A stretch of 64,000 nucleotides of DNA from a virus. The DNA is taken from the IMG/VR virus record IMGVR_UViG_3300009130_000016, positions 18,902 through 82,901 of that record; one strand, written 5' to 3'. The position numbers and the translations under genes were made by a program. The notes beneath the pieces are model-generated. The model was not told the origin of the DNA. It saw nothing but the letters and a program-made list of their open reading frames with translations, and ran no database searches. The stretch's first letter is position 1. Each line of letters starts with the position of its first letter. Shown here in pieces: positions 20,201 to 57,437 of the stretch.

Positions 20201-20768
20201 CGGGGGAGATCTCGGAGGAGGAGGAGGCCTTGGCGGTGGTCTAGGCGGAGACTTAGGTGGTCTCGGTGGTGATCTTGAAGGAGACCTTGATGATGAAGAA
20301 CTTGGTGGTGAAGAATTAGGTGATGAAGAAGGGTTGGAAGGAACTGAAGAAGCACCAGAAGAAGAGTCAGAGGCATTATCGGAGTCTAAGAAGGCTAAAT
20401 ATATCAAAAGAGAGCTTAAAGAGTCTGACAAAAGGTATGGTGAGTATTTTAATGAACTATTTCAAGAAGAGAAAAAGCCTGCAAACAGTCTTTTAAATAA
20501 CTATGAAAAATCTAACACAAAATCATTGAAACTTAAATCTTCGATGAAAAGTGTTGAGAAGATTATTAAGGAAAGAGGCGAAGAGAGAAGAAGGGAGTCT
20601 GAGTTATTGATTAATGAAATAGCTGAGAACGAAATGGAAACTCTTCAAGAATCTGTTGAGTTTAAATCAAATAAGTTGCATGAATCAAATGATGAATTAA
20701 ACAAAAGAGCAAGGGAGGCAATAGAAAGAGTTAATGAAAGGATGAAAAAACCTGGAAATGAGCAATAA
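17223..20768 (+). CDS. Portal protein (T4 gp20-like) containing an HNH-type intein
   Basis: YGRSML..ARK.WKQL.L.EDAMLVYRLARAPERRVFYIDVGN, EEDFFIP, TLPGA|intein|SNMGDI.DIEYL..KLF.ALKVP. Confidence 0.95.
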   Translation: MAENNKGTIFQRALHAFRKDPRSGINQAPMGHTPMASTQNMDGYPTRVNPSSPVNSLEHQQQQYLDWQMDAIAQDIYTRTVYYDTDRVGAYQDYNAMDHSPEIAAALDIIRDECLVRNERGNILEIYSENDRVKEVLKDLFNNKLNVEYNMRLWIRELVKKGDFFLHLHIDGEGRKGVYDVMALPAEEIHREDGVDGMIDNTRFRWDSKNMYFEEWQIAHFRLIEDTKRLPYGRSMLDPARKLWKQLQLSEDAMLVYRLARAPERRVFYIDVGNIDDADVKQYIDQVKLSVKGQPVVNSKTGDISRKFNPAHVEEDFFIPIRGDKSSKIETLPGACLALDTEICLLDGRNLELNEIIEEFKVNKNLWSYSINPETGEIVPGKITWAGVTRKDTEVVKITLDNGETITTTPDHKFPTRFNGIKEAKDLQPNESLWSFNKKLAPVSKDTRKKRNDYEMVFDHSSNDWVYTHRLVANYFKSLGEHNELVFNESSSDKSKQTIHHQDYDRFNNNPSNLHFMNNKDHRDLHADNIYEWSKLGVEAWMKKFDNDEEFKQEVLLRLEKSRTEYYANRDGETTQKHNESISKGIKEYFNNISKEEAERRKGINIKNISGANARLKELMQDECFKQEMYEKSSKNLKIVKNTPEYKEIQSGISKNLWKDESYRNAIAEKQTIKYADSMLQFVVNLYKKGFSAKDIVIAINEEGSTFMEAFNSLNEGNKQLKKMENGFTHNNLVKLMSHFGYDNWRDFKNKAELFNHRIVSIEFLEEKVDTGTITIDGGEKYHDHHNFALASGVFTQNSNMGDIADIEYLENKLFAALKVPKPYLNYAESMPGGSMLSQADLRFARTINSIQESVLMELRRIANIHLMFTGFEDDIDNFTLTLTNPSSQQELLNLETWRTRLEIFKEMFNTEPGSPTSYTWAMENILGFSQAEIKLMFKQKKVEKKLFTEIEAAAETYKKIGLFKDLDKRYEDPEKAAAAEGGGAEGGGEDEFGGDLGGGGGLGGGLGGDLGGLGGDLEGDLDDEELGGEELGDEEGLEGTEEAPEEESEALSESKKAKYIKRELKESDKRYGEYFNELFQEEKKPANSLLNNYEKSNTKSLKLKSSMKSVEKIIKERGEERRRESELLINEIAENEMETLQESVEFKSNKLHESNDELNKRAREAIERVNERMKKPGNEQ
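18228..19616 (+). mobile_element. Intein (463 aa) with embedded HNH homing endonuclease, in the portal
   Basis: Starts CLALDTEI, block B TTPDHKF, HNH-like YTHRLVA...IHHQDYDRFNNNPSNL, ends HNFALASGVFTQN; the +1 residue is Ser. Confidence 0.92.
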
Positions 20769-21848: not shown

Positions 21849-24800
21849 ATGTATATTATATTTGATACGGAGACTACAGGTCTTCCAAAAAATTATAACG
21901 CACCATACACTGATGTTCGTAACTGGCCTAGAATGGTTCAGTTAGCATGGCAAGTGTATGATAGGGATGGGAAGTTGTTAGATGAGAAGGATCTTATAAT
22001 CAAACCTGATGGATTTATTATTCCGCCAGAATCTACAAAGATTCACAGGATCGGAAACGAAAGAGCAAATAGAGAAGGTATTCCTTTAGAAGATGCTTTG
22101 GAGCAGTTTGATAAAGCTATTGCTGAAAACAAGGTTCTTGTTGCACACAACATTAAATTCGATGAGAAGATAATCGCTTGTGAGCAATACAGAGGTAGTA
22201 GAAAGATAACTATCTACGACTGTCAGCATATTGATACCATGAAAGGTACGATTAACTTTTGTGCCGTTCCTGCAAAGAGAGGTAAAGGTTTTAAGTTCCC
22301 CTCCCTTGCCGAGTTACATTATAAATTGTTTAAGCAATATTTCGAAGATGCCCATGATGCATTAATTGATGTTCAGGCGTTAGCGAAGTGCTTTTTCGAA
22401 TTACAAAAGGTCGGTGTAGTAGGTAAAGCTCCAGAAGAATCTCAGCAAAGTGCTGCAGAGATGCTTAGTGGACTTTCAGTTTCTTATTCTGCAAACACAA
22501 GTAATGGTGATGAAGAAAAGCCGTTTGTGAATTTATCAATTCACACGTATCACTCCATACTTGAAGGTGCTGGTTCTGTAAAGGAGTATTTGGAGTTAGC
22601 AAAAGCTAATAACCAACCTGCGTTAGCAATAACGGATATCTCAACAATGTCTGGGACATTTGAATTGTTTCAGAAAGCAGATGGGATTAAGCCTGTTTAC
22701 GGCATCGAATTCTATGTTAATGACAAACTGCTAAAGTTCGATGAATTAAGAGCTCAAGGGGGTTGTTATAAGCTTAGAATGTATGCTAAGAATGAAACTG
22801 GGTATCACAATCTTTCTAGGTTATTGTATTTAGCCAACACGGAAGGGTTTGGTGACTTTGGGCGTATTTGTCCAGAGTGGATTCAAGAAAATTCAGAAGG
22901 AATCATTGTAACAACAACTTCAATAGAAGGTAAGGTTGCCGAGTTGTTACAAATGGGTAAGATTACAAAAGCAGAAGAGCATATTCAATGGCTATTGACT
23001 ACTTTCGGAAAGGAAAATGTGTATGCTGAATTTCAGTTGACGAAAGACGCAGATCAAAGAACATATAATACGTTTATGGTAAAGGCTGCTACCACTTATG
23101 GTATCAAAAGTATTTTATCAAACAACACATATTTTCCAAGACCAGAAGACTGGGAGTTGCAACATGTTGTTTCAGCAATGAAGCAAAAGGCTCCTATTGA
23201 AACTGCAAGGTTGAAAGAGAATTCTGAGATGTTTTTCTTTAACAGAGGTGATTTCTACAGAGCAAACAAAGAGAATGGCTACAACTACCCAGAGTGGTTT
23301 ATTGACAAGTGTCTTGATAGAACATTGGAGATTGCAGAACGTTGTAACTTTGAGTTTGAGACAGGTGTTGAGAAATACCCAGAGTATGAGCCTACACAAG
23401 AAGTTCTTGATTGGTGTAAGAGTGATGATGTTGAACACATTGTTGCTAAGATTGCACATGCAAAGCTTAAGGTGAAACTTAAAAAGAATGCAGACCTTGG
23501 TTATATTGAATTAGATGATGAAAAATATCAAGCTTATGTTGATAGATTAAATTATGAAATCGGTGTAATTCGAGATAAGAAAATGCTTGATTACTTTTTG
23601 GTGTGTTGGGAACTTGTTCGTGATTATGAGAAGACAGAGTATGAAGGCAAACCTTTATCTGTAGGGCCAGGTCGTGGAAGTGCTGGAGGAAGTTTATTGT
23701 CTTGGTGCCTTGACTTAATTAAGGTTGACCCTGTAAGATTTGATCTTTGTTTTGAGAGATTCTTGAATCCAACAAGGAATTCCCCTCCCGATCTCGACAT
23801 TGACTTTGAGACAGGTACTGACCACATCTCAAATGAGTTTCTTTACAATAAGTATGGGAGAGATAGGGTTGTTAGTGTTGGTACGTTCTACACATTTAAC
23901 GAAAAAGGTTGTCTTAAAGATGTTGCTAGATCAATCATTGGTAGAGAGGCCACTTCAAGTGGATCTCCTGTGTGGAAAGTTACCGATGAAATGCCAATTA
24001 ACAAAGCTGGTAAGTGGACAAATAAAGAGATGCCATTCGAAAAGTGGCTTATTGAATATCCAAAAGATCCAGAATGTTCTCAAATAACTCGTGAGTTCTT
24101 ACAAGACCCTGCTAACGCAAGAGTTTTAAAGTACACAGTTAGATTACAAGGTGAGATTAGGGGTATTGGACAACACGCAGCAGGTGTGGCTATTACTCCA
24201 GATAAGTGTTGGAAATATTTCCCAACAAACGTTATCCCAAAGAAAGGTGAAGCTCCTGCGTTGGTAACAGCATTCCAAGAGGCCGATGGTTCTGGTAAGG
24301 ATTTGTCTGCTCTTGGTATTCTTAAATTGGATAGGTTGAAATTGGAGACAATTAATGTTGTTGAAGATTGTGTACACTTGATTAAGGAGACACAAGGTAT
24401 TGACATTAGAGATACTTTGTATCATTTAGATCTTAGTGATCCTAATTTGTACGAAGAAGTTAGGTTGGGTCTTAATCATGGTGTATTCCAGTTTGAATCT
24501 GCAGGGATGGGGTCTTTGATTAAGTCTATGAAAGTAGATAACTTCATGGAGTTGGTTGCATGTAACGCATTGTATCGTCCAGGTCCGATGGGTATTGGAG
24601 CCCATGATGAATTTGTTCGTAATAAGTTCAACCCAGAGGGTATTCAGTACATTCACCCATCTTTGGAGCCAATATTGTCTAAAACAAATGGTGTATTGGT
24701 TTTCCAAGAGCAGTTAATGTTTATTGCCGAGTCAATTGGTGGTATGACATTGGGGGATGGTGATTACTTGCGTAGGTTTATGGGTAACTCTGGAGATCTT

Positions 24801-25958
24801 ATTCAAAAAGAATTAGATGGTATTCCTTTAACAAAAGAAGAGGTTGAAAGTTATAATTTTCAAAGTTTTAAGAAGTACTGGGGAATGTTTATTGATGGTG
24901 CAAAGAGGCAAGGTTTCTCTGAAGTAGATGTTGAGCGTTTGAAAAAGTACTTGATGAAATATTTAGGTTACTCATTTAACTTATCTCACTCACTTTGTTA
25001 TTCATACGTTGCTTGTCAAACATTATATTTGAAGCATTATTATCCAACAGAGTATTATACTTGTTTGTTGAATCACCCTAAAACTTCTGGTAAGCCAGAG
25101 GAAATTCAAGCATGGATTTCAGCAGCTATATCTAGTGCAATATCAAAAGGTATTAAGGTTAATTCTCCAACTAGAGAATCAAACTGGGATTGGAAAGCTA
25201 CAGGTAAAGGTGAAATCACAATGGGTTACTCTGGTATCAAAGGATTCGGAGATGTTGCTTATGAAGAGTTGAAATCTAACTTAGCAGCAAAGGAAACAAC
25301 TTTTGACCAAGTGGATAAGTTTACATTCTTCGATACAGTGTATTCTAAGTTTAACAAGTCTGCATTTACATCTTTATTGAAAGCAGGGGTTTTTGATGAT
25401 TGGTCACATTCAAGAGAAGAATTAACTGATTTGTTCTTGAAGGCTACTAAGACTAAGAAGAAGAGAAAGGCAGATCCTAAGCAATTAGGGTTGTTTGGTG
25501 CAACATTTAAACCTCAGCTTAAGCCTAATGAAGATTTGTATAAGCCAACAACAGATTTGCACAAGTCAGTTGACTTTGTTGATGTTTGTAACTGTGACCT
25601 TCAATACATTGAGCAAGCAACTAAGGTTAAGAGTAGGATTTCAGAAAAAGCAGGTAGAGATATCGAAAGTATAAGTGATTATGTTAACGAGGATTTCTAT
25701 TACTTCATCATGGAGAAAAAAGAGATCAGAAAAAACATTAGAGGTAACGATTACTTAATATTAACGGTAAGTAACGGATTCTCTCAAAGTAAGCTTAGAA
25801 TATTCGGTGGAGATGTTAAGAAAGTTGATCCATTGATGGAAGAGAAAGGAGTTTATGTTGGAAGGTTTGTAAAGAATGATAAAGGGTTTATCAACTTTGC
25901 TAAGATGAGCATAAAAGGTAAAAAACAAATTTATTTAAAGAAAGTTGATCAAATTTAA
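21849..25958 (+). CDS. dnaE: DNA polymerase III alpha subunit with N-terminal DEDDh exonuclease
   Basis: MYIIFDTETTG/AHN..FD/AHDA..D exonuclease; PHP HTYHS; GPGRGSAGGSL; FERFLNP.R...PDLDID; GQHAAGV; GVFQFES; YSFN.SH. Confidence 0.95.
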   Translation: MYIIFDTETTGLPKNYNAPYTDVRNWPRMVQLAWQVYDRDGKLLDEKDLIIKPDGFIIPPESTKIHRIGNERANREGIPLEDALEQFDKAIAENKVLVAHNIKFDEKIIACEQYRGSRKITIYDCQHIDTMKGTINFCAVPAKRGKGFKFPSLAELHYKLFKQYFEDAHDALIDVQALAKCFFELQKVGVVGKAPEESQQSAAEMLSGLSVSYSANTSNGDEEKPFVNLSIHTYHSILEGAGSVKEYLELAKANNQPALAITDISTMSGTFELFQKADGIKPVYGIEFYVNDKLLKFDELRAQGGCYKLRMYAKNETGYHNLSRLLYLANTEGFGDFGRICPEWIQENSEGIIVTTTSIEGKVAELLQMGKITKAEEHIQWLLTTFGKENVYAEFQLTKDADQRTYNTFMVKAATTYGIKSILSNNTYFPRPEDWELQHVVSAMKQKAPIETARLKENSEMFFFNRGDFYRANKENGYNYPEWFIDKCLDRTLEIAERCNFEFETGVEKYPEYEPTQEVLDWCKSDDVEHIVAKIAHAKLKVKLKKNADLGYIELDDEKYQAYVDRLNYEIGVIRDKKMLDYFLVCWELVRDYEKTEYEGKPLSVGPGRGSAGGSLLSWCLDLIKVDPVRFDLCFERFLNPTRNSPPDLDIDFETGTDHISNEFLYNKYGRDRVVSVGTFYTFNEKGCLKDVARSIIGREATSSGSPVWKVTDEMPINKAGKWTNKEMPFEKWLIEYPKDPECSQITREFLQDPANARVLKYTVRLQGEIRGIGQHAAGVAITPDKCWKYFPTNVIPKKGEAPALVTAFQEADGSGKDLSALGILKLDRLKLETINVVEDCVHLIKETQGIDIRDTLYHLDLSDPNLYEEVRLGLNHGVFQFESAGMGSLIKSMKVDNFMELVACNALYRPGPMGIGAHDEFVRNKFNPEGIQYIHPSLEPILSKTNGVLVFQEQLMFIAESIGGMTLGDGDYLRRFMGNSGDLIQKELDGIPLTKEEVESYNFQSFKKYWGMFIDGAKRQGFSEVDVERLKKYLMKYLGYSFNLSHSLCYSYVACQTLYLKHYYPTEYYTCLLNHPKTSGKPEEIQAWISAAISSAISKGIKVNSPTRESNWDWKATGKGEITMGYSGIKGFGDVAYEELKSNLAAKETTFDQVDKFTFFDTVYSKFNKSAFTSLLKAGVFDDWSHSREELTDLFLKATKTKKKRKADPKQLGLFGATFKPQLKPNEDLYKPTTDLHKSVDFVDVCNCDLQYIEQATKVKSRISEKAGRDIESISDYVNEDFYYFIMEKKEIRKNIRGNDYLILTVSNGFSQSKLRIFGGDVKKVDPLMEEKGVYVGRFVKNDKGFINFAKMSIKGKKQIYLKKVDQI

Positions 25959-41567: not shown

Positions 41568-41876
41568 ATGATAGATTTTGCAGCAATACTAAGAGATGGT
41601 CAAGAACTAAGGGCAATGCCTCCTTTTATTATAACAGATAGATCGACAGATGTTTTTGTGACATATAATAAGGAAAAAACTAGATTGGATAGGATTGCAG
41701 GTGATGTTTATTCAGATGCTACCAATTGGAGAATTATACTTTGGGCTAACCCAGAGTATTTTATAGAATTTGATATACCAGACAACACTCAAATCAGAGT
41801 TCCTTACCCATTGAGTGAAGTGCAGTTTGAGATAATATCAAAATTACAAAAAGGAAGAAACAGAGAAACAGTATAA
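41568..41876 (+). CDS. Baseplate wedge LysM-like protein (gp53/tail X-like)
   Basis: RLDRIAGDVY.D...WRII..ANP...IP....IRVP. Confidence 0.75.
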   Translation: MIDFAAILRDGQELRAMPPFIITDRSTDVFVTYNKEKTRLDRIAGDVYSDATNWRIILWANPEYFIEFDIPDNTQIRVPYPLSEVQFEIISKLQKGRNRETV

Positions 41877-44800
41877 TGGGAGTAATAGGTATAGAAACTT
41901 TTGATGAAAGTGAATTGAATCTACAGGTAAGATTAGATACTTGTGTAGATGGTGATGTTGCCATTGATTATACTGGTAAAAAATCTTATACCTTTGGGTT
42001 AATGAGAGAAGGGATTGGGTTTGGCATTACAGGCATAGACATTGATATCAATGCATCTCTACAGCCTGTAATAGAAATTACTTTTAAAGATCTTTATGGA
42101 AACACTTTGTTTGGAACTCAAAGAGTTGGTGGTCAACTTAGAGGTGATAACGAAGGTGCTTTTAACAAGCCCACAGAGATTGATTACTCAGTTTTATTTA
42201 ACTGGCCACCACCAAAGTTTTATTTCACATTTAAAGGATTTCTTGGTGAATCTGTAACTTGGATTTTAAACTTAAAAAAGACAAGTACGACATTTGACTC
42301 AAGTGATCAGTCATTTGTTTTGAAAGCTTCTTTTGTGCCAAATCAGTGGGGCTTCTTTGCAGACATGCCGTTTTTGTTCTTGTTGGCCGTTAAGTCTTTA
42401 AAAACAAAATTTGGAGATGGGACTGTAGAACCTGGATCTTTTACGACATTATATGATTTAATTAAGATTGGGAAAAAAGTAGAGGTTCAAAAAAATGAAA
42501 CCTCAAAAAAGTTCGATGCACTATTGAATCAGATATCTTCATATCAAAGCAACTTAGCTGGAGCTATTGAGATTTCGAAGGTTATAAAATATGACACAGA
42601 AATAACGGGTATTGTTGATGGTCTAAAAATAGATGGTTTTCAACCTTTTCAGGTGGTAAAGCCTGCTTCACATTCAACTGTTACAGATAAACTTGATGAT
42701 CAAGTTAAGTTTTTTTTAAACGATGCATCTAAGTTTGAAAAGTTTACAAAATTTTTGGCAACGGAAGCCACAATATTCGGAGATCAAAATTCAGAGGCAA
42801 ATAAGAAAAAAGCTGATGAGATAAGGAAGAAAACTATTGCTGATATAGATGCTTATGATACAGATGCAAAGAAGGCTGTGTTTGAAAATGTTATGCAAAA
42901 GATTGCAAATAACAGGAGGGCGATTGAGTTAAAAATACAAGAAACCACAATAACAACAACTGGTTCAGAGTTGGGTAAGTTAACTATATCCAATGTTTTG
43001 TCTAAAATAGCTGGTGATAGTGGATATATTTTAGGTAGGATTTTAGAAGCTGGATATGGCATCTTTAATGAAACACCGAACAAAACAGTATCAACAACTT
43101 CTGTTGGTGACACTGGGCCATCTTTACCAAGGGATATATCTGTGGGTGAAGCAAGAGGTGCTAGAAATTCACCAAACCTAATAGGTAAACACTTTCCTAT
43201 GATGATTAAGGAATCGAAAGAGGTTCCTGCAACGACTGAAAATTATGGTCAAGACATTGGTGTCGATAAATACGAGATGAAATTTGTGAAAGATTTTTTC
43301 ACAGCTATTTCAGATGGTATTGTAGAAAACAGGTTAAGTCTTGATGAGGCAAGTTTGAATGCAAGTCAAGATTCGAAAGTGATAAAGAGAGTTTCTAATG
43401 CAGAGATAACTCAAGAAAACCCTTATAAAGCAACATATGAAAGTATTACTACAAACATACTAGAGAGATCAGGTATCATTTCGTTTATAACGAGATCTTA
43501 TGATCCAAATAGGCCTGGAAACTACGGTAACACTACTAATTTTCAAAATGACAATAAACAGAATATTTTAAAACTTGCAAATGCAGATACTCAAAACATT
43601 ACTGAAGATTTGCTTAAGTCGGTTTTTGATGAAGATATTTTAAAACTAAAAAGGTTTTGTCTTTTCTTTAAGAATTTTTTTGATTCAAACGGAGGGGTTA
43701 AAACAACAAATGAAAGTGGTGTAACCGTTCCTTTACATAACCCTGACAGTGATGAGTTTAATGACCCAGCTGAAGAGGTTAAAGAATCTATGAACGCAAG
43801 AGTAAAAACAAGTGATTCTGGTGGGGAAACTGAGGTTGTTAATGCTTTTGATTTTTTTAGGGAAATAGAAACGTTATTGGTTGGAAGTCAAAGTACAGAT
43901 GCTATAAATGAAGTAGGTAGATTCACTAGTTTTTATCAGCTTAGAAGAATGGTGAATAACAACGTTCCTTATTCAGTTGAATCAGATAACGAAGCATCAG
44001 ATTCGAATGAAAATAGCAGAAATGGTTCCCACTATTATATGATTAGGTTTGAAGGTAGTGATGTTGCCACGGCTACTTCTGCTAACAGTAGCGACACTGA
44101 TGGTACTAAAGATAGTGAACATGATGATCCAAATGGTGTGTGGGATGCAGAGGAACCCATAGGACTTGTTAAAGTTAATTCTACAACAGGTGAGGGAGGA
44201 GAAGTTCTAGGTAGAGTTGAGTATTATGATTTTGATTATGCACAAAATAATAAAGTGTATGATTTTGAGAAAATGAAATCTGCAGGTCGTAATTACATAT
44301 CTAAAGGACATAACTCAACACCAACCACGTATCAGGCTAATCAAGTAACAGAGTTAGATGGTAGATATTTTGTTGATGAAACTGGTGGTGAAGCGTATCC
44401 AACGAATGCATCTAACACAGAATTTGTTTCATATGTAGTATCTGGTGGATATATATCAAATGATTTATTAAATTCTGAAGAGTTAGCAGAAAACCTCCCA
44501 AATGGTGGGATGGCTTTCACTATTTATTATCAAGCAGATAGATCTGATAATGATGATAATATTATCTGGGGTCCATTCTTAAACACTACTGAAGGTGTAA
44601 ACCAAAGAAGAGTTCTTTGGGCTTTGTGTAATAATTTGTACGAAAAATTACAAACTGAAGATCAGAGAAGAAGGGAATTGGTTGGTACCATTTTAGGAAA
44701 TGCATCTGAACAACAAGACGTTTTATATAAGCAGTTTCACTTATTGTTTAACCAATGGAATTTATTAGCATATAAGAATCAAGATTTTCTTGACACATCT

Positions 44801-45754
44801 AAAAAACGTCCTAATATATGTCTAAAACAACTTGGTGGTACTAATATTGCAAATTACTTAGAAAAACTTTTCGGTGATAAAGAAAAGCATTTAGATGTTT
44901 CAGGGGTTAGAGATCCTTCTTTGCCAAGTGATACTACTTTTAGATATGACTATCCAATGAACTCTATTGGTGAAAATGGGAATGTGAAAGTTTCTGAGGC
45001 ACTTATTAATATTGATCCTCTTTATAGCCCAAAAGCTAACACAACTGTTTTAAATGCTATTCAGCAGATATGTCAAAAGAATAATTTCATATTCATACCA
45101 ATACCTGGGAATGCGGATTATAGAAATGTTGGTAACATCTATAAGCCAAACCCTGCTGTTGCAGACATTAACATAAGAAATTATTTTCATGTGATGTTTG
45201 CTCCAACCCCAGAAAGGAGAGTGCAAGGAAACGAAGGGTCAACTACTCCAAATAATAGTGGAGATGATTTAAATATACAAGTAGATGCAATACAGTTTGA
45301 GTTTGGTAGTATTAGAAATAAGGTTGTGAAAAGTCTGAACGTTAGTACTGATGAAAACAAGATGACAGCTGAGAGTATTGTCAATCTACAAAGGTTGGTT
45401 GATAATGAAAATAGGAATAAAAAAGTTACAACAGATTGTTCTATGATCCCTGTATTAGAGGGTAGGAGTTATAAGGCAACAGCAGAAGTATTGGGTAATG
45501 CACAAATATACCCTATGCAGTATTTTTTTGTTCCAAAAATGCCTTTGTTTGGAGGCCTGTATCAAATTATGAAGGTTAAGCATAAAATAGAGCCTAATAA
45601 CATGACTACAACAGTAGAAGGTCTTAAAATTCTTTCTGCTGGAGGTAAATATGGAGGTCAGCCACCTGTTACATTAAAATCACTACAAGCAGAAATAGAT
45701 CAAGTTAATGTTGTAGACAATTCAAACACGAATACAAATACGAATAATACATAA
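41876..45754 (+). CDS. Large baseplate hub protein (gp27/VgrG-like ends)
   Basis: C-terminal RSY.A..E.LGNAQI.PMQYF....P.F.G.Y.I.KV.H.I; follows the LysM-like gene. Confidence 0.65.
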   Translation: MGVIGIETFDESELNLQVRLDTCVDGDVAIDYTGKKSYTFGLMREGIGFGITGIDIDINASLQPVIEITFKDLYGNTLFGTQRVGGQLRGDNEGAFNKPTEIDYSVLFNWPPPKFYFTFKGFLGESVTWILNLKKTSTTFDSSDQSFVLKASFVPNQWGFFADMPFLFLLAVKSLKTKFGDGTVEPGSFTTLYDLIKIGKKVEVQKNETSKKFDALLNQISSYQSNLAGAIEISKVIKYDTEITGIVDGLKIDGFQPFQVVKPASHSTVTDKLDDQVKFFLNDASKFEKFTKFLATEATIFGDQNSEANKKKADEIRKKTIADIDAYDTDAKKAVFENVMQKIANNRRAIELKIQETTITTTGSELGKLTISNVLSKIAGDSGYILGRILEAGYGIFNETPNKTVSTTSVGDTGPSLPRDISVGEARGARNSPNLIGKHFPMMIKESKEVPATTENYGQDIGVDKYEMKFVKDFFTAISDGIVENRLSLDEASLNASQDSKVIKRVSNAEITQENPYKATYESITTNILERSGIISFITRSYDPNRPGNYGNTTNFQNDNKQNILKLANADTQNITEDLLKSVFDEDILKLKRFCLFFKNFFDSNGGVKTTNESGVTVPLHNPDSDEFNDPAEEVKESMNARVKTSDSGGETEVVNAFDFFREIETLLVGSQSTDAINEVGRFTSFYQLRRMVNNNVPYSVESDNEASDSNENSRNGSHYYMIRFEGSDVATATSANSSDTDGTKDSEHDDPNGVWDAEEPIGLVKVNSTTGEGGEVLGRVEYYDFDYAQNNKVYDFEKMKSAGRNYISKGHNSTPTTYQANQVTELDGRYFVDETGGEAYPTNASNTEFVSYVVSGGYISNDLLNSEELAENLPNGGMAFTIYYQADRSDNDDNIIWGPFLNTTEGVNQRRVLWALCNNLYEKLQTEDQRRRELVGTILGNASEQQDVLYKQFHLLFNQWNLLAYKNQDFLDTSKKRPNICLKQLGGTNIANYLEKLFGDKEKHLDVSGVRDPSLPSDTTFRYDYPMNSIGENGNVKVSEALINIDPLYSPKANTTVLNAIQQICQKNNFIFIPIPGNADYRNVGNIYKPNPAVADINIRNYFHVMFAPTPERRVQGNEGSTTPNNSGDDLNIQVDAIQFEFGSIRNKVVKSLNVSTDENKMTAESIVNLQRLVDNENRNKKVTTDCSMIPVLEGRSYKATAEVLGNAQIYPMQYFFVPKMPLFGGLYQIMKVKHKIEPNNMTTTVEGLKILSAGGKYGGQPPVTLKSLQAEIDQVNVVDNSNTNTNTNNT

Positions 45755-45756
45755 TA

Positions 45757-46299
45757 ATGGCGATAGACACAAGTTTAGTATGGGATCAGGATGTAACTGT
45801 TCCATCTGTTAATAAATTAAACGATACTATTAAGGATAAAGTGTTTCAGTTTATCCTTATGGCTCAAAGAGAAAGCATATTCCTTAGAGTTCCTACTAAT
45901 GGTGGATACATTTCATTCGATGACCAAGAGGCAAAATTTAACGGTGGGTTTTCTAAGGTTTTGCCTGGAGGAACATTTCATAATTTCGGATTAGCATTCG
46001 ATGTTTTACCTTTAACTAAGACCAAATACACTTTAGACCAAAGGTTGAGTGATGGAAAGAGGACGTTGACAGATGAGAAGTGGCAAAGAGTTGGTCAAAT
46101 TGGAAGGCTGTTAGGATTCGAGTGGGGTGGAGATTGGTTGACCAATGATGATCCTCATCCAAAGTTTGATAGTGCACATTTTCAATTGCCAAGAGATATT
46201 ATTACAACAGAAGAATTGAGAGGTTTAAGAACAACTCAAGGGGTTGATGTTGTAGTATTACCAGATGAAATTAAAGAGGATTTCAATTCTCAAGATTGA
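45757..46299 (+). CDS. M15-family peptidoglycan peptidase (L-Ala-D-Glu peptidase-like lysin)
   Basis: FHNFGLAFD, GFEWGGDW and FDSAHFQ zinc-binding motifs. Confidence 0.82.
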   Translation: MAIDTSLVWDQDVTVPSVNKLNDTIKDKVFQFILMAQRESIFLRVPTNGGYISFDDQEAKFNGGFSKVLPGGTFHNFGLAFDVLPLTKTKYTLDQRLSDGKRTLTDEKWQRVGQIGRLLGFEWGGDWLTNDDPHPKFDSAHFQLPRDIITTEELRGLRTTQGVDVVVLPDEIKEDFNSQD

Positions 46300-46343: not shown

Positions 46344-47981
46344 ATGAGAGTTCTAAAGGTATGTAACATATTCTGTACAGAAGAAATAGACTTTGAGATG
46401 TTGAAAACATATCTCAAGGATTTCCCTGTGTACCTTAGTCAAGAAGACAGTGTTTTGGAAGAAGATGTTCCTTCTATTATTGTTGGTTGGAACTATATTA
46501 AGGAGAAATACCCAGACCAAAACATATACGACAAGAAGATTGCTGATACAAACTTGTCTTGGACGTTCTCTCACAATGAAGAGAAAGAAAGTTTCCTCGA
46601 AGATATAAAGTTATTTGTTAATACTGAGATAAAAAGGTGGTTGCCGAAGGATTTTATCATATATGATCCATTTTTTAACGGAGGCCCAAAGGCTTTTATT
46701 GATAAATACATAGATTTCGACAATCCTACGTTCACTTATTACCATAAGGGTGCTTTATATGTGTCAAATAACGATAATAACTACTCATTTAACATGAATT
46801 CGTTATTGTATGCAGATGAACGGTACGGTGAACAGATAATCGATTTCTTAAACGAAAGAAACGTTGTTGTATTTTCTTATTCCAATGTAGATGAGCTTGT
46901 TGATTGTAATAAGTTGAAGAATCCATCATTCGATTCTATTATATGGGCCAAGTTTGGTGTTGAAATAGATGATGAAAAGCAATTTAACATCATACCGAAC
47001 TTTAATTACCAAAAATATGCACCATTCTTCATGAGTTTTATGGGGATCCCTGATTTAGACAAGGAAGACAGAAAGTTTGCTGAACGAATGGTAAAAAGGG
47101 ACAAGGTTACAAGATATTGCTCTACAAGAAAGATTGCTATAAGCAAGACGTTGAAAATACCAGGGAAGAAAGTAATTGAATCAGATGATTGTAACTTTGT
47201 AAACGTAAACTTCTCCAACAAAAGAACTCTTACAAACAGAGTTGTGTGTAAGGATAAGTGGAACGTTCAAAATGAGCCAAAAGATTCTCCTAGAAGAAAA
47301 GAAATGGTGAGTAGGTTCAAAGGTGGGCAGTTACTTGTTTGTGATTATCAATCTTTTGAGACATGGATTTCAATTTACCTTACTAAGAACGAGAATTTCA
47401 TAAACTATTTCAAAGGTAAGGATGTTCATGCAGAAGTAGGTAGGTCTTTATACGGAAAACGTGAGTTGGCTAGTGAAGAGAGGAAGTTTGCCAAGATATT
47501 GAACCATTCAATGTTGTATGGTGCCTCTTATAATAAGCTTGTGGCAATGATTGGTGAAAAGGATATACAAGAGCCACAAGAGAAGCTTTATTATGTACAA
47601 AGGCTTCTTAGGCCCATTGTTGAAAACTCCAAGTTAATCAATGAAGAGGTTAAGAAGAAAGGTTATTCAGTAACATCTTGGGGATCTATTGTAAAGCCTG
47701 ATAAGAGTTATGCAGCTTACAACAATCTGGTTCAAACAACGGCATCGGAAATGTTGATTGATAAAATTGAAACCATAAGGAATTGTTTGTCTAACAAGAG
47801 AAGTGATTTTGTGTTCCAGGTTCATGATTCTCTTATTTTTGATATTTCACCACAGGATAAGGGTGTGATACCTGAGATCCTAAACATTCTATCCATCTTT
47901 GGGAAACGGAATTTCCCAATTACTTATAAAACAGGTAGTAACTATGCTGAACTCTCCGAAGAGTTAGTTTTTTCAGAATAA
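46344..47981 (+). CDS. Family A DNA polymerase core without recognisable exonuclease domains
   Basis: Motif A CDYQSFE, motif B RKFAKILNHSMLYG, motif C FQVHDSLIFD, N.VQ.TA. Confidence 0.85.
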   Translation: MRVLKVCNIFCTEEIDFEMLKTYLKDFPVYLSQEDSVLEEDVPSIIVGWNYIKEKYPDQNIYDKKIADTNLSWTFSHNEEKESFLEDIKLFVNTEIKRWLPKDFIIYDPFFNGGPKAFIDKYIDFDNPTFTYYHKGALYVSNNDNNYSFNMNSLLYADERYGEQIIDFLNERNVVVFSYSNVDELVDCNKLKNPSFDSIIWAKFGVEIDDEKQFNIIPNFNYQKYAPFFMSFMGIPDLDKEDRKFAERMVKRDKVTRYCSTRKIAISKTLKIPGKKVIESDDCNFVNVNFSNKRTLTNRVVCKDKWNVQNEPKDSPRRKEMVSRFKGGQLLVCDYQSFETWISIYLTKNENFINYFKGKDVHAEVGRSLYGKRELASEERKFAKILNHSMLYGASYNKLVAMIGEKDIQEPQEKLYYVQRLLRPIVENSKLINEEVKKKGYSVTSWGSIVKPDKSYAAYNNLVQTTASEMLIDKIETIRNCLSNKRSDFVFQVHDSLIFDISPQDKGVIPEILNILSIFGKRNFPITYKTGSNYAELSEELVFSE

Positions 47982-52432: not shown

Positions 52433-53416
52433 ATGAGTGAGAAAGAAACAGAACCTATACTAATAGACAACCCTGACAGGTTTGTTATTTTTCCGATAAA
52501 GCATGATGATATCTGGAAAGCATACAAGAAAGCTGAGGCCAGTTTCTGGACTGCTGAGGAATTAGATCTTAGTGCCGATCCAAAGGATTGGGAAAACAAA
52601 CTTAATGACAACGAAAGGTTTTTTATTGAGAATGTATTAGCGTTTTTTGCTGCAAGTGATGGTATTGTTAATGAAAATTTGGCTATAAACTTTACGAATG
52701 AAGTACAATTTCCAGAAGCAAAGTTTTTCTATGGATTCCAAATTATGATGGAAAACATCCATTCAGAGACTTATTCTTTGTTAATTGATACATACATTAC
52801 AGACAAAGAAAAGAAAGCAAAGTTATTAAGAGCTATTGAAACAATGCCTCCTGTTAAGAAAAAAGCGGAATGGGCATTAAAATGGATTGAGAGCGAATCT
52901 TTCGTTGAGAGATTAATTTCTTTCTGTGTAGTTGAGGGAATTTTCTTTAGTGGTAGTTTCTGTGCTTTATTCTGGCTGAAAAAGAGAGGTTTAATGCCTG
53001 GGTTGACATTCTCTAATGAGCTGATCTCAAGAGATGAGGGGATGCACTGTGATTTTGCAGCTTTGTTATACAACAAGTATATCAAAAACAGATTGTCTAG
53101 AGAGAGATTGTTGGAAATCATTCTTGATGCTGTGAAAATCGAAAAAGAGTTTATTACAGAAGCATTACCAGTTAGTTTAATTGGAATGAATGATGAGTTA
53201 ATGTCTCAGTACATCGAATTTGTTGCTGATGGTTTGTTAATTGATCTAGGAGAAGAAAAGCACTTTGGAACAGAAAACCCATTTGACTTCATGGTAAATA
53301 TTGCCCTTGAAGGTAAAACGAATTTCTTTGAGAAGAGAGTTGGGGAATACCAAAAGTCTGGTATTGCAAATGAAAATATTGATGCTTTTGATTCTGATGC
53401 TGACGAGGATTTTTAA
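52433..53416 (+). CDS. nrdB: Ribonucleotide reductase class Ia beta subunit
   Basis: [55 protein letters not shown]. Confidence 0.97.
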
Positions 53417-53489: not shown

Positions 53490-54677
53490 ATGAGAATTAT
53501 TAAAAGAAACGGGAAGGAAGAAAGCCTCCGACTGGAAAAAATCACTAAAAGAATTGAGTCAGCGACTTCTTCTTTATCAGGTGTTTTAGATCCAGATTTG
53601 GTTTCCCAAAAGGTTATCTCTGGTTGCTACGATGGAATTACAACAGATGAGATTGATACTTTGGCTTGTGAGACTGCTGCTCAATTAATTATTGAACACC
53701 CAGATTACTCAATGCTTGCATCAAGACTTGCAATTACTGCATTAGAAAAAGTTACTCCTAAGAGTTTCTCTAAAGTTGTGGACAATCTTTATAATTTTAT
53801 TGATCCAATGACTGGTGATCGTGCAGGTATGATTTCTGATGAAGTTTATGACATCATCATGAAAAACAAAGACAGATTGAATTCACATATTATCCACAAG
53901 AGAGATTGGAATATCGATTTCTTCGGGTTTAGAACATTGGAGAGAGCTTATTTGTTAAGAATTAACAATAAGCCTGCAGAGAGAATTCAACATATGTGGA
54001 TGCGTGTTGCAGTTGGTATCTGGGGAGAAAATATCGATAAAGCTATTGATACTTATGATTTAATGTCAGAGAAGTATGCTACTCATGCCACACCTACATT
54101 GTTTAACTCTGGTACAAAGAGACCTCAAATGAGTTCTTGTTTCCTTATTGCAATGAAAGAAGACAGTATCGAAGGTATTTATGATACTTTGAAGCAGTCA
54201 GCTTTGATTTCTCAATCGGCTGGTGGAATTGGGCTTCACATTCACAATGTGAGAGCAACAGGTTCTTATATTAAAGGAACTAATGGTTATTCTAATGGTA
54301 TTGTTCCAATGCTTAGAAACTTCGATATGACTGCTCGTTATGTAGATCAGTGTTTTGATCCAAAAACTAATGTTAAAACAGATTCTGGTCTTGTTCCAAT
54401 TTCAGAGATCAAAGAGGGAGATAAAGTTCTTACATCTGATGGTAATTACAATACTGTAAAGAATAATAAGAAATTCCCTTTTGAAGAACGTAACTTTGTT
54501 AGATTGGATACTAAGGATGGCCATAACATAGTTACTGATGAACATTTATTTTTAGTTATTAAAAATGGAAAGGGAGTAGATAGTATTAAGGAAAAGGTGA
54601 AAAATGGACAATATTCACCTGAATGGGTAAAATCTAATGAAATAACTACTAATGATTTGTTGATTAATATGAAGTAA
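53490..54677 (+). CDS. nrdA: RNR alpha N-terminal fragment (ATP cone to YVDQ) fused to an N-intein
   Basis: IIKRNG ATP cone, [35 protein letters not shown], then CFDPKT intein block A. Confidence 0.95.
54351..54677 (+). mobile_element. Split intein N-half (108 aa)
   Basis: [28 protein letters not shown] block A, IVTDEHLF block B (TxxH), WV...E....D.L, then TAA. Confidence 0.92.
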
Positions 54678-54679
54678 GA

Positions 54680-54722
54680 ATTTTCTTCCGCCTATTTATA
54701 AAAAAACAAGGCGGAAGAAAAT
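54680..54722 (+). promoter_or_regulatory. 14-bp hairpin sequestering the endonuclease start, with TATTTATA at the loop
   Basis: attttcttccgcct (54680-54693) and aggcggaagaaaat (54709-54722) form a perfect inverted repeat that includes the AT of the ATG; TATTTATA at 54693-54700. Confidence 0.8.
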
Positions 54723-55611
54723 GAAAGACTTTTATAAAAACGATAAGTCAGGAAATAAGAAAAAGTACTCTTTTATGAGGGATAATTATCCAGGTATTAC
54801 AAATGAAATTATTAAATGGGGAGAAAGCAATGGTTTATTGCAATTGCCGTTTGATGAATTATCATATTTAAAATTTAATGGATTAAATAAAGTTCCTTCA
54901 GATGAAACAGGATTTAAGAAATTTAAGAGCTGGTCTAAAGGGTATAACAAGAACGGGTCGATAAAATCGATTGAAGATAAATTTATAAACAATAATTTGA
55001 TTGACTTCAAAAAAGGATTGACAGAAGACGATTATGAAATGCAAAAGAAAGGGGGTTATTTAACTCAGTTGATTAGCAACAATTACTTTTTGTATAATGA
55101 ATTAATGGGAATGTTTGACAAAGAAATTCCATTACGTCAGAAAGTTGATATGTTTTTGAATGATATCACAAAGGTTCCTAAATGTAAAGTGTGTGGAAAT
55201 AATGTTAAAGTGAGATTGACACATGGAGGATTTAGAGAAACATGCTCAGAAAAGTGCAGAAGAGAGTTAGAGGGGTCATATAAATCTTATTATATTGATG
55301 TTGATGGTGAAACCATCAAAGTTCAAGGTTATGAAAGGTTTGTGGTTCCTGTTTTGATTGAAAAATATGGACGAGATGATGTTTTGGTTGGTTTTGAAAT
55401 AAAACCTATAGAATATGAACTTAATGGTGAATTAAAAAAGTATTATCCTGACATATACATAAAAAGTGAAAACAAAATTGTAGAAGTTAAATCTACTTAT
55501 ACATTTGACTATGATAAGGAGAAAAACTTAGCAAAAAGAGAAGGGTGCATAAAGAGAGGTTTTGGGTTTGAATTTTACATTTGGGACAAAAAAGGAATGA
55601 AAATAAAATAG
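54721..55611 (+). CDS. Free-standing putative homing endonuclease (zinc finger plus PD-(D/E)xK domain)
   Basis: PKCKVCG...CSEKC zinc motif, then QGYE...YYPDIYI.....IVEVKS; sits between the two intein halves. Confidence 0.8.
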
Positions 55612-55613
55612 AT

Positions 55614-55805
55614 ATGATTAACATAAAATTAGATCATCCTAACATGGATGGAGAGATAACTGAAGAGGTTGTCAAATTAGACATAGACAATGTAGAGTTT
55701 GTTGAGATAGAAAATGTCCAAAGTTTTTTAAAAACTACATCTGTTCATGATTTGGAAGTAGAAAATACACCAAACTATGTAACTGATATATCGATAGTGC
55801 ATAAT
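55614..55805 (+). mobile_element. Split intein C-half (64 aa)
   Basis: Block [14 protein letters not shown] and block G IVHN; the +1 residue is Gly (GGC). Confidence 0.9.
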
Positions 55806-57437
55806 GGCGGTGGAAAAAGAAAAGGTTCTATTGCTATTTATTTAGAGCCATGGCATGCTGACATCTTCGAATTCTTGGATTTAAAGAAAAACCACGGTAA
55901 AGAAGAAGGTAGAGCAAGAGATTTATTCTACGCACTTTGGAATTGTGATTTATTCATGAAGAGATCTAACGAGGGCGGTACTTGGACATTATTCTCACCT
56001 GATTCAGCTCCTGGTTTATCAGACTGTTACGGTGACGAGTTCGAAGCTTTATACACAAAGTATGAGGAAGAAGGTAAAGGTATTAAAACTGTTGATGCTA
56101 GAAAACTTTGGACTAAAATCATTGAATCTCAACAAGAGACAGGCACTCCGTATATGCTTTATAAGGATGCTGCAAACAAGAAGTCTAACCAAAAGAATAT
56201 TGGTGTAATTAAGTCTTCAAATCTTTGTACAGAGATCATGGAATTTTCTAATTCAGAAGAGACTGCTGTATGTAACTTAGCATCGATAGCATTGCCAATG
56301 TTTGTGTCTTCTTCTTATAAGAGAAAGCCGAAGAAAATTGATAAATCTAAATTGTTCTTTGATCACGACAAATTGTATGAAGTTGCCTACAAGATGACTG
56401 AAAACTTAAATCAAGTTATCGACAGAAACTTCTATCCAACACCAGAGACTAAAAACTCTAACATGAAGCATAGGCCAATTGGTTTAGGTGTTCAAGGCTT
56501 AGCTGATGCGTTTGCTGTTTTAGGATTACCTTTTGATTCTCCAGAGGCAAAACAATTAAACAAGGATATATTCGAAACTATCTATTTCGCAGCTGTAACG
56601 GCTTCTGCTGACTTAGCTGAGAGAGATGGTGCCTATTCTTCATTTGAAGGTTCTCCAATGTCAGAAGGTATTTTCCAATTCGACATGTGGGAAGATAGAA
56701 AAGTTGAGAAGAATAAAGAAACAAAAGAATGGGAGATCACAGAGAGAAAGCCAGTTGAATTATCTGGAAGATGGGATTGGGATTCTTTAAAAGAGAAAGT
56801 TAAGAAAACAGGAGTTAGAAACTCATTGTTGCTTGCACCGATGCCAACAGCTTCTACTTCTCAAATTTTAGGAAACAATGAATGTTTCGAACCGTTCACT
56901 TCAAACATGTATTTGAGAAGAGTATTGTCTGGAGAGTTCCCCGTAATCAACAAACACTTGGTTAATGACTTAGTTGAGTTGGATTTGTGGGATAAGGAAA
57001 TGAGTAAGAAGATTATTTCTGAAAACGGATCTGTTCAAAACATTCCAGATATTCCTACTGATATCAAAGAAAGATACAAGACAGTTTGGGAAATGTCAAT
57101 GAAAACAATTATTGATATGGCTGCAGACAGAGGGTACTTCATTGATCAGTCACAGTCTATGAACTTATTCATCAGAGATGTAAATGCTGCTAAATTAACA
57201 GGAGCTCACTTCTACGGATGGTTAAAAGGTCTTAAGACAGGAATGTACTATTTGAGATCAAATGCTGCTCAAGCTGCCAAAGCAAGTCTTGGAGGTATAA
57301 GTAAGAAGGGGGAAGTGGTTGAAGAAGAAAAGCTTTTTAATGGTAAACGTCTTGAAGACATGACTATTGCAGAGAAACGTCAGTATCAACTAGACAACCC
57401 ATCAGATGAGGAAGGTTGTCTTGCATGCGGATCCTAG
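55614..57437 (+). CDS. nrdA: C-intein fused to the RNR alpha C-terminal fragment
   Basis: ATG at 55614; VHDLEV....NYV...IVHN then [52 protein letters not shown]-terminal CLAC. Confidence 0.95.

Follow-up and report, generated by a model that had tools for sequence, protein, structure and literature searches.

The window analysed here, a 64-kb stretch (64,000 nucleotides) of the 82.9-kb IMG/VR virus record IMGVR_UViG_3300009130_000016, contains a ribonucleotide reductase (RNR) locus in which the nrdA gene is fractured. Downstream of nrdB, the locus comprises three open reading frames (ORFs): NrdA-N (53490-54677), a middle ORF (54721-55611) and NrdA-C (55614-57437). The two outer ORFs each couple one half of the host protein (an extein) to one half of an intein (IntN and IntC), and the first residue of the C-extein, position +1, is a glycine (Gly+1). 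Protein splicing is taken, by definition, to require a cysteine, serine or threonine at +1 (PMC4031507, PMC7664689). The features of the locus are listed here; a caret in sequence motifs marks an intein-extein junction or the equivalent point of an intein-free sequence, and E is the expectation value.

52433-53416, + strand: nrdB, encoding the RNR small subunit, intact, 327 amino acids; named by sequence reading and by its position immediately upstream of nrdA-N
53490-54350, + strand: NrdA N-extein, 287 amino acids, ending at the loop-2 Gln (ARYVDQ); Pfam PF03477, PF00317 and PF02867 (positions 1-72), TIGR02506 (positions 2-151)
54351-54677 (coding to 54674), + strand: IntN, 108 amino acids (CFDPK…LLINMK) and stop; blocks A and B with Cys1 and VTDEH
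54680-54722, + strand: 14-bp hairpin; folding free energy -21.2 kcal/mol, z -6.7, a stability reached by 0 of 200 shuffles
54721-55611, + strand: free-standing putative homing endonuclease, 296 amino acids; Pfam DUF7487, E 2.1e-20 (residues 192-281), and PHROG 3339 'homing endonuclease', E 3.2e-6
55614-55805, + strand: IntC, 64 amino acids (MINIK…DISIVHN); block F VHDLEVE and block G VHN
55806-55808, + strand: GGC, the Gly+1 codon, encoding the first C-extein residue and native first Gly of loop 2, from reading of the sequence
55806-57437, + strand: NrdA C-extein, 543 amino acids and stop; Pfam PF02867 (positions 65-523), E 1.3e-182, and TIGR02506 (positions 132-615)

Anatomy of the fractured gene

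The NrdA-N ORF encodes 395 amino acids, comprising NrdA residues 1-287 and then 108 residues that start at a cysteine (CFDPKTNV...LLINMK, followed by the stop), and NrdA-C, read from the ATG at 55614, encodes 64 residues ending in His-Asn and then NrdA residues 288-830. A longer NrdA-C frame that begins at the TTG at 55581 overlaps the middle ORF by 31 bases; the ATG at 55614 is in line with the N-termini of split relatives (P0002, P0003, L035 and L015), and the stop codon of the middle ORF ends 2 bases before it. The N-extein holds the ATP-cone, the all-alpha domain and the first 72 barrel positions, with the SSCF motif on this chain, and the C-extein carries NLCTEI, PMPTAS, YYLR and the C-terminal CLAC. 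The break itself falls after the loop-2 Gln, 138 residues before NLCTEI, and in Pfam and NCBIfam searches the two NrdA parts abut at the break, with Hint matches alongside.

IntN scores just below the cut-offs of the Pfam families Hint and Hint_2, as expected of half a domain. In a PDB sequence search it hits the gp41-1 intein (6QAZ, E 6.8e-6) and, less strongly, a BIL (bacterial intein-like) domain, 2LWY; RecA matches in the same search were rejected as repeat artefacts, no single stretch being significant. The net charge of IntC is -11 and that of IntN is 0. When aligned with contiguous mini-inteins inserted at loop 2, IntN tiles the N-terminal part and IntC the C-terminal part, and the split point lies where larger relatives have their endonuclease domain. 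By these alignments and motifs, IntN and IntC make up one complete class-1-type HINT domain.

An earlier note on this DNA, written from the letters alone, had described an NrdA-N that ends ARYVDQ^CFDPK with a 108-residue IntN and a stop at 54677, and an NrdA-C whose 64-residue IntC ends IVHN^GGGKRKGS with GGC at 55806. The ORF reading agrees with it on each of these points, and also on the intactness of Cys1, the block B TxxH (VTDEH), the block F Asp (VHDLEVE) and the terminal His-Asn, and on the placing of SSCF on one chain with NLCTEI and CxxC (CLAC) on the other. The window intein therefore has the blocks A, B, F and G of a canonical class 1 intein and lacks the Cys, Ser or Thr at +1. By its sequence features the junction is not due to chance, because the RNR domains abut at the break, Hint matches accompany them, and the same junction occurs in hundreds of independent sequences.

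Contigs near-identical to the window were found in four marine or seawater metagenome runs (X1-X4) of a single study. The earlier note had asked whether a codon other than GGC might be present at 55806; GGC is unchanged in Logan contigs of three of the runs (X1 record 2, X2 record 5 and X3 record 11), which are assemblies rather than raw reads and all come from the one study, whose samples may include that of the source. Run X4 leaves 55611-55781 uncovered. An Rfam search over the whole window found no intron or other RNA family at gathering score, and RNA-level joining of the halves by a group I or group II intron was rejected as far as this test reaches.

Insertion site and intein-free alleles

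The mobile cassette of 1,455 bp (54351-55805) lies exactly between the Gln of loop 2, which we take to be the allosteric specificity loop of RNR, and the following Gly. The nearest intein-free NrdA (P0229/P0230) is uninterrupted, 829 amino acids long and 89% identical to the C-extein; the joined window exteins amount to 287+543 = 830 residues, and their flanks match the P0229/P0230 loop letter for letter. All 119 of the 119 nearest intein-free homologues are uninterrupted and read YVDQGGG(K/R)RKG, so that precise removal of the cassette restores an intact loop 2, as the earlier note had proposed. Since every one of these homologues has Gly at the position equivalent to +1, the Gly+1 of the window is what the loop natively has there, rather than a nucleophile lost by mutation. 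As is expected of a canonical intein, the element thus interrupts a conserved host protein in frame at a conserved site, and close homologues lack it.

The same samples also contain uninvaded genes. In the four marine runs, contigs of a relative align with the window from 55809 on, and the letters that precede this point encode …ARYVDQG; reading …ARYVDQG^GGKRKG, they represent an intein-free allele. Invaded and uninvaded nrdA alleles therefore co-occur in the same marine samples. A second, more abundant intein-free allele in these samples is probably …DNQ^GGKRK, with a consensus agreement of only 0.62. A locus search of viral contigs for an intein-free relative gave nothing closer than 61%. 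Among intein-free viral alleles (52 parsed of 80 loci), the residue after the Gln is Gly in 39, Ala in 8 and Ser in 5, a spread by which each intein clade uses the residue native to its host loop.

Gly+1 across the loop-2 RNR inteins

Single-sequence locus searches with IntN and IntC returned distant inteins only, mostly from other genes. IntC retrieved seven relatives, each with …VHN^GGGKRKG(S/A) at the junction; three of them are split and the remaining four contiguous, one carrying a LAGLIDADG domain. A pattern for viral DNA, H-N-x-G-G-K-R-K-G with x left free, was found in 38 viral loci, many of which are giant-virus bins and some of which are near-copies of one another, and x was Gly behind blocks F and G in 38 of 38. 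Twenty-two of these loci are contiguous behind …(Y)(V/I/C)DQ^C, seven are split and nine are cut by the end of the locus. The same pattern gave 61 matches in one genome per prokaryote species. The 28 that are real RNR junctions have Gly in every case and come mostly from Saprospiraceae, Lewinellaceae, Chitinophagales and Cytophagales bins, with a single bin from Actinomycetota. The remaining 33 matches arose by chance in unrelated frames, and because x varies among them, the pattern does not force Gly.

Profile searches gave the same residue. A profile of five mini-inteins found 73 proteins, 23 of them with loop-2 RNR junctions and Gly in 23 of 23, and the inteins at other sites among the 73 have Cys or Ser at +1. 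On viral loci this profile found 41 sequences, 17 being loop-2 RNR inteins, again all with Gly. A junction profile, built from 24 sequences and spanning 45 intein and 25 extein residues, gave 2142 matches at E up to 1e-3 and 314 at 1e-10 among 1.84 billion representatives. The best 150 representatives comprise 119 with Gly+1 (109 GG(G/N)(K/R)R and 10 GGKR) and 31 with Ser+1 (SG(K/R)R), with no Cys or Thr, and the terminal Asn is present in all 150 (HN in 148, KN in 2). Contiguous relatives have inserts of 170 to 500 amino acids in loop 2.

By these sequence surveys, Gly+1 is the norm of a large, old intein family, whose contiguous and split members occur in phages, giant viruses and bacteria. 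The tabulation of +1 residues at the DQ^GG site in metagenomes, suggested in the earlier note as a check, thus widens the scope of its Gly+1 observation: the junction stands, and it is not peculiar to the window allele.

Two family members, P0002 (955 amino acids) and P0032 (1486 amino acids), have a second intein in the same nrdA, at the NLC^T(E) site of the thiyl-radical Cys and with a canonical Cys+1; one polypeptide thus holds both a Gly+1 and a canonical intein.

Conservation, codon usage and phylogeny

Among contiguous inteins with a recognisable N-junction, Cys1 is present in 104 of 104; one further N-junction picked by pattern was an internal false match and is not counted. The 80 Gly+1 rows of this alignment have the block B Thr in 97% and His in 100%, the block F Asp in 100%, and the block G His in 97% and Asn in 100%, and the Ser+1 rows have the same values. 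These catalytic residues have been kept even though the median end branch is 0.94 changes per column long.

The Gly+1 codons of 66 loci are GGC in 28, GGT in 20, GGA in 11 and GGG in 7, and the use of all four indicates that Gly has been kept through synonymous turnover. Ser is one transition from GGY, yet it is unused in these loci. Ser at +1 belongs to a form with a shorter loop, VHN-x-GKRNG, which occurs in 80 viral loci; of the 75 recognised as RNR, 74 have Ser at x and one has Gly. The Ser codons are TCN in 53 and AGY in 21. In a tree of the 104 inteins, the 24 Ser+1 rows form one side of a branch with a Shimodaira-Hasegawa-like approximate likelihood ratio test (SH-aLRT) value of 98, and a single change between Gly and Ser, in either direction, suffices; the trees are quick searches over about 140 columns and are unrooted.

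One well-conserved column, and only one, differs between the two groups. The residue two after the block F Asp is acidic in 57 of the 80 Gly+1 rows and in none of the 24 Ser+1 rows, where it is mostly Asn; in the window it is Glu (55749-55751). As this pattern takes one change on the tree, it may reflect ancestry and nothing more.

Split relatives, the middle ORF and the hairpin

The window, L035 and L015 form one split clade (SH-aLRT 98; the split loci L024 and L037 were left out of this tree). With an intein identity of at most 44% within the clade, the split form is old. L035 (3-3329) has the same order as the window, with the endonuclease between the N and C halves, and its endonuclease is 47% identical. 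In L015 (5924-8952), the endonuclease has been lost, and the nrdA halves overlap with none in between. L024 has a more distant endonuclease (31% identity) between the halves and a second copy upstream.

Read by eye, the endonuclease ORF of the window contains a Cys4 zinc-ribbon-like stretch and then a PD…E-V-K motif resembling the PD…E-x-K nuclease core. It has a faint match to a TnsA-like endonuclease (E 0.027). There was no Vsr or GIY-YIG match in Pfam even at E up to 10, no NCBIfam match, and no sequence relative in the PDB at E up to 1. The hairpin ahead of this ORF hides a purine-rich ribosome site and with it the first two bases of the AUG that starts the endonuclease; RNA hairpins upstream of gene-fracturing endonucleases have been described as attenuators (PMC2677866). 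Within the hairpin loop, on the minus strand (54693-54700), there is also one copy of the T4/Aeh1 late-promoter octamer TATAAATA, the other copies of which are described with the phage below.

Relation to known systems

The locus has the layout common to the fractured genes of Dassa et al. 2009 (PMC2677866), namely a host N-half with IntN, an endonuclease ORF, and IntC with the host C-half, and it resembles them further in the hairpin over the endonuclease start, the phage origin and the occurrence in marine metagenomes. Here, as in those genes, two adjacent ORFs each contain a host half and an intein half, and together they make up a whole intein. The identification of a natural split intein at DQ^GG, with Gly+1 and an endonuclease gene between its halves, is supported accordingly. 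However, the NrdA-1 to NrdA-7 inteins of that study are inserted directly N-terminal to the thiyl-radical Cys, whereas the window insertion is in loop 2, at Gln^Gly (PMC2677866). The endonucleases of those fractured genes are GIY-YIG or Vsr-like (PMC2677866); the window ORF matches DUF7487.

A further comparison is with the Ser+1 inteins of loop 2, which share the insertion point after the Gln, the blocks and the Cys1…HN of the Gly+1 inteins, and which lie within or beside the Gly+1 diversity. Their loop is one residue shorter (Q-S-G-K-R), Ser being native in 5 of the 52 intein-free alleles, and unlike the Gly+1 inteins they can splice by the textbook route. The +1 nucleophile of the gp41-1 intein is likewise Ser, and canonical. 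This phage-type split intein from a fractured gene (6QAZ) is the nearest solved intein to IntN by sequence; it interrupts another host protein and is shorter than the window intein.

BIL domains reside in variable parts of bacterial proteins that are neither conserved nor essential, and they are not known to be homing elements. Unlike them, the window element occupies one invariant site of an essential enzyme, with intein-free alleles and with endonuclease-bearing and split forms. The likeness lies in the domain itself: a type A BIL, that of Clostridium thermocellum (2LWY), is a HINT domain with Cys1, a C-terminal His-Asn and no +1 nucleophile (PMC4031507). In the phage Aeh1, nrdA is also fractured by a mobile endonuclease gene and an active enzyme is made of two chains, NrdA-a and NrdA-b; no intein is involved there, short charged tails assembling the enzyme (PMC3045599), whereas the window has complete catalytic intein halves. 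The background cited in the earlier note, consisting of fractured genes (PMC2677866), the two-chain RNR of Aeh1 (PMC3045599) and aminolysis in BILs (PMC4031507), is borne out by these sources. In the literature searched, neither a true intein with Gly+1 nor any intein inserted at this point of RNR was found described; junctions of this kind may be listed in the intein tables of PMC5784728 and PMC2677866.

Need for a functional product

Four bacterial genomes that carry the Gly+1 allele were checked for PF02867 (class I/II RNR alpha). In three of them, two of which are titled as complete chromosomes, the family matches nothing but the two parts of the Gly+1 gene; the fourth genome has two further PF02867 genes. 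The check covers class I/II RNR only. Where the gene is the sole class I/II RNR alpha gene, its product must work. In the phage, both NrdA halves are full-length open frames with all catalytic RNR motifs and adjoin an intact nrdB. The window gene is best explained as a working, fractured class Ia nrdA.

Proposed mechanism and its alternatives

The ligation chemistry at Gly+1 is what we infer from this anatomy, by analogy with type A BILs, for which aminolysis of the thioester by a freed amine is the proposed route (PMC4031507). The two chains would dock through IntN and IntC and through the halves of the RNR barrel, and Cys1 would form a Gln287-Cys thioester. Cyclisation of the terminal Asn would then free the C-extein with the alpha-amine of Gly at its end, and this amine, held beside the thioester by the folded enzyme, would attack it directly. 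The outcome would be a native YVDQGGGKRKG with no branched intermediate, as proposed for type A BIL domains, and the placing of both extein ends in one tight loop of the folded barrel should favour ligation over hydrolysis. Native ligated NrdA, made by a loop-2 Gly+1 split intein through Asn cyclisation and Gly-amine aminolysis of the Gln-Cys thioester, is a result that could fall either way, with the balance about level. A profile of the family (A1) matches the BIL structure 2LWY with E 1.9e-8 over its first 72 positions, and it matches inteins equally well (PI-PkoII, E 1.3e-8). It is suggested, more tentatively, that the loop-2 RNR Gly+1 inteins, including the window pair, constitute a fourth mechanistic class of true inteins, which would ligate with no side-chain nucleophile at +1.

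Several points weigh against splicing at this junction. In canonical inteins, +1 Ala or Gly mutants cleave and are not known to splice. The alignment of the 104 loop-2 RNR inteins contains no catalytic residue special to the Gly+1 group, the trees that relate the two groups are the quick, unrooted ones of about 140 columns, and the read support for GGC is limited to contigs of a single study. The phage record is about 29% complete (CheckV), and the phage may have a second RNR gene outside it. Finally, the products of type A BILs are reported to be mostly cleaved ones (PMC4031507, PMC7664689).

This last point leads to the alternative in which the halves dock and cleave: thioester hydrolysis and Asn cyclisation would remove IntN and IntC and leave an active, nicked, two-chain NrdA (…YVDQ-COOH and H2N-GGGKRKG…), the barrel keeping its pieces together. 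Where the +1 side-chain nucleophile is missing, cleavage is what one would expect by default, it is reported as the predominant outcome in BILs (PMC4031507, PMC7664689), it would need the same conserved residues (Cys1, TxxH and HN) as ligation, and the two-chain class Ia RNR of Aeh1 is fully active (PMC3045599). The nick, however, would fall inside loop 2, between the Gln and a Gly run that is invariant in the 119 nearest intein-free homologues, whereas the break in Aeh1 is elsewhere, between the equivalents of Cys439 and Cys462, and needs special tails (PMC3045599); moreover, the freed Gly amine would sit beside the thioester, where ligation would compete with hydrolysis. This outcome is possible and is regarded as distinctly less probable than an even chance. 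It and nucleophile-free trans-splicing, the preferred reading, are the two leading explanations, and computation does not separate them. It is improbable that the intein halves act as a zipper, merely holding the NrdA fragments together with no bond made or broken and the HINT domain staying on loop 2. Split-intein halves do bind tightly, IntC is strongly acidic, and interaction tails rescue the fractured NrdA of Aeh1 (PMC3045599), but pure docking would not keep Cys1 in 104 of 104 sequences, the terminal Asn in 150 of 150, and the block B His and block F Asp at 100%, and it would be meaningless for the contiguous relatives, including those that are the sole RNR gene of bacteria.

The pseudogene and sequencing-error explanations both appear unlikely from the sequences compared here. 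If the fracture had inactivated nrdA, the phage would use another RNR or that of its host, and another RNR gene of its own could lie in the missing part of the record. A dead or dying gene is nevertheless very hard to reconcile with two open halves that retain every catalytic RNR motif beside an intact nrdB, with the 89% identity of the C-extein to an intact homologue, with a split lineage whose three phages retain both halves intact although their inteins have diverged to 44% identity, and with a Gly+1 junction that, in three of the four bacterial genomes, belongs to the sole class I/II RNR alpha gene. Slighter still is the chance of canonical splicing from a real +1 nucleophile hidden by assembly error or recoding at 55806, or from the Ser at +8. 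GGC is one transition from AGC (Ser), and a Ser+1 clade exists at the same site; against this, GGC recurs in the contigs of three runs, all four Gly codons are used across the 66 independent loci, the intein-free alleles have Gly there, and the window has no Rfam intron or RNA family. The Ser at +8 was rejected as a hidden nucleophile, the position varying between Ser and Ala across the family.

The source phage and its other features

The window encodes a major head protein, a tail sheath, a large terminase, a T4-like portal, a DnaB-like helicase and DNA polymerases, with nearly all genes on the + strand. The head protein, sheath, terminase and portal genes identify the source as a tailed, myovirus-type phage, uncultured and marine, and its genome is probably large, given the completeness estimate. 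A megablast search of the region against phage records found no match.

The T4-like portal ORF (17223-20768, + strand, 1181 amino acids) is interrupted by a contiguous intein of about 463 amino acids (approximately 18228-19616), with junctions LPGA^CLALD on the N side and GVFTQN^SNMGD on the C side. This intein has an internal HNH-endonuclease match and a terminal Gln-Asn followed by a canonical Ser+1, so one textbook junction and one Gly+1 junction are found within the same phage.

The octamer TATAAATA occurs in 20 copies against 6.3 expected, and 0 of 100 shuffles reach 20. Many copies are on the minus strand, at a distance of a few to about 40 bases upstream of + strand ORFs (for example 34116, 37418 and 58539).

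An ORF of 1369 amino acids (21849-25958, + strand) has an N-terminal RNase T-type exonuclease and then PHP, Pol III alpha, finger and HhH domains. Its domains make it a PolC/DnaE-like replicase. The phage has, in addition, a family A polymerase fragment-like ORF (46344-47981, + strand, 545 amino acids), which matches the C-terminal part alone of family A DNA polymerases. Upstream of the latter is an ORF of 1292 amino acids (41876-45754) with no Pfam match, and a peptidase M15 ORF (45757-46299) lies in between.

Significance of the Gly+1 family

The Gly+1 inteins of loop 2 are a large, ancient and mobile intein family that has no +1 nucleophile, keeps its other catalytic residues and resides in an essential enzyme. 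The window contributes a compact split version (108 + 64 amino acids) with natural exteins and an adjoining NrdB partner. If the junction is ligated, the family would be a natural exception to the textbook mechanism outside BIL domains, and the natural split pair would be a tool for traceless trans-ligation at Gln-Gly junctions. If it is only cleaved, a class Ia RNR would function although its specificity loop is nicked, which RNR allostery would not lead one to expect. Ligation and cleavage alone would thus each be unexpected.

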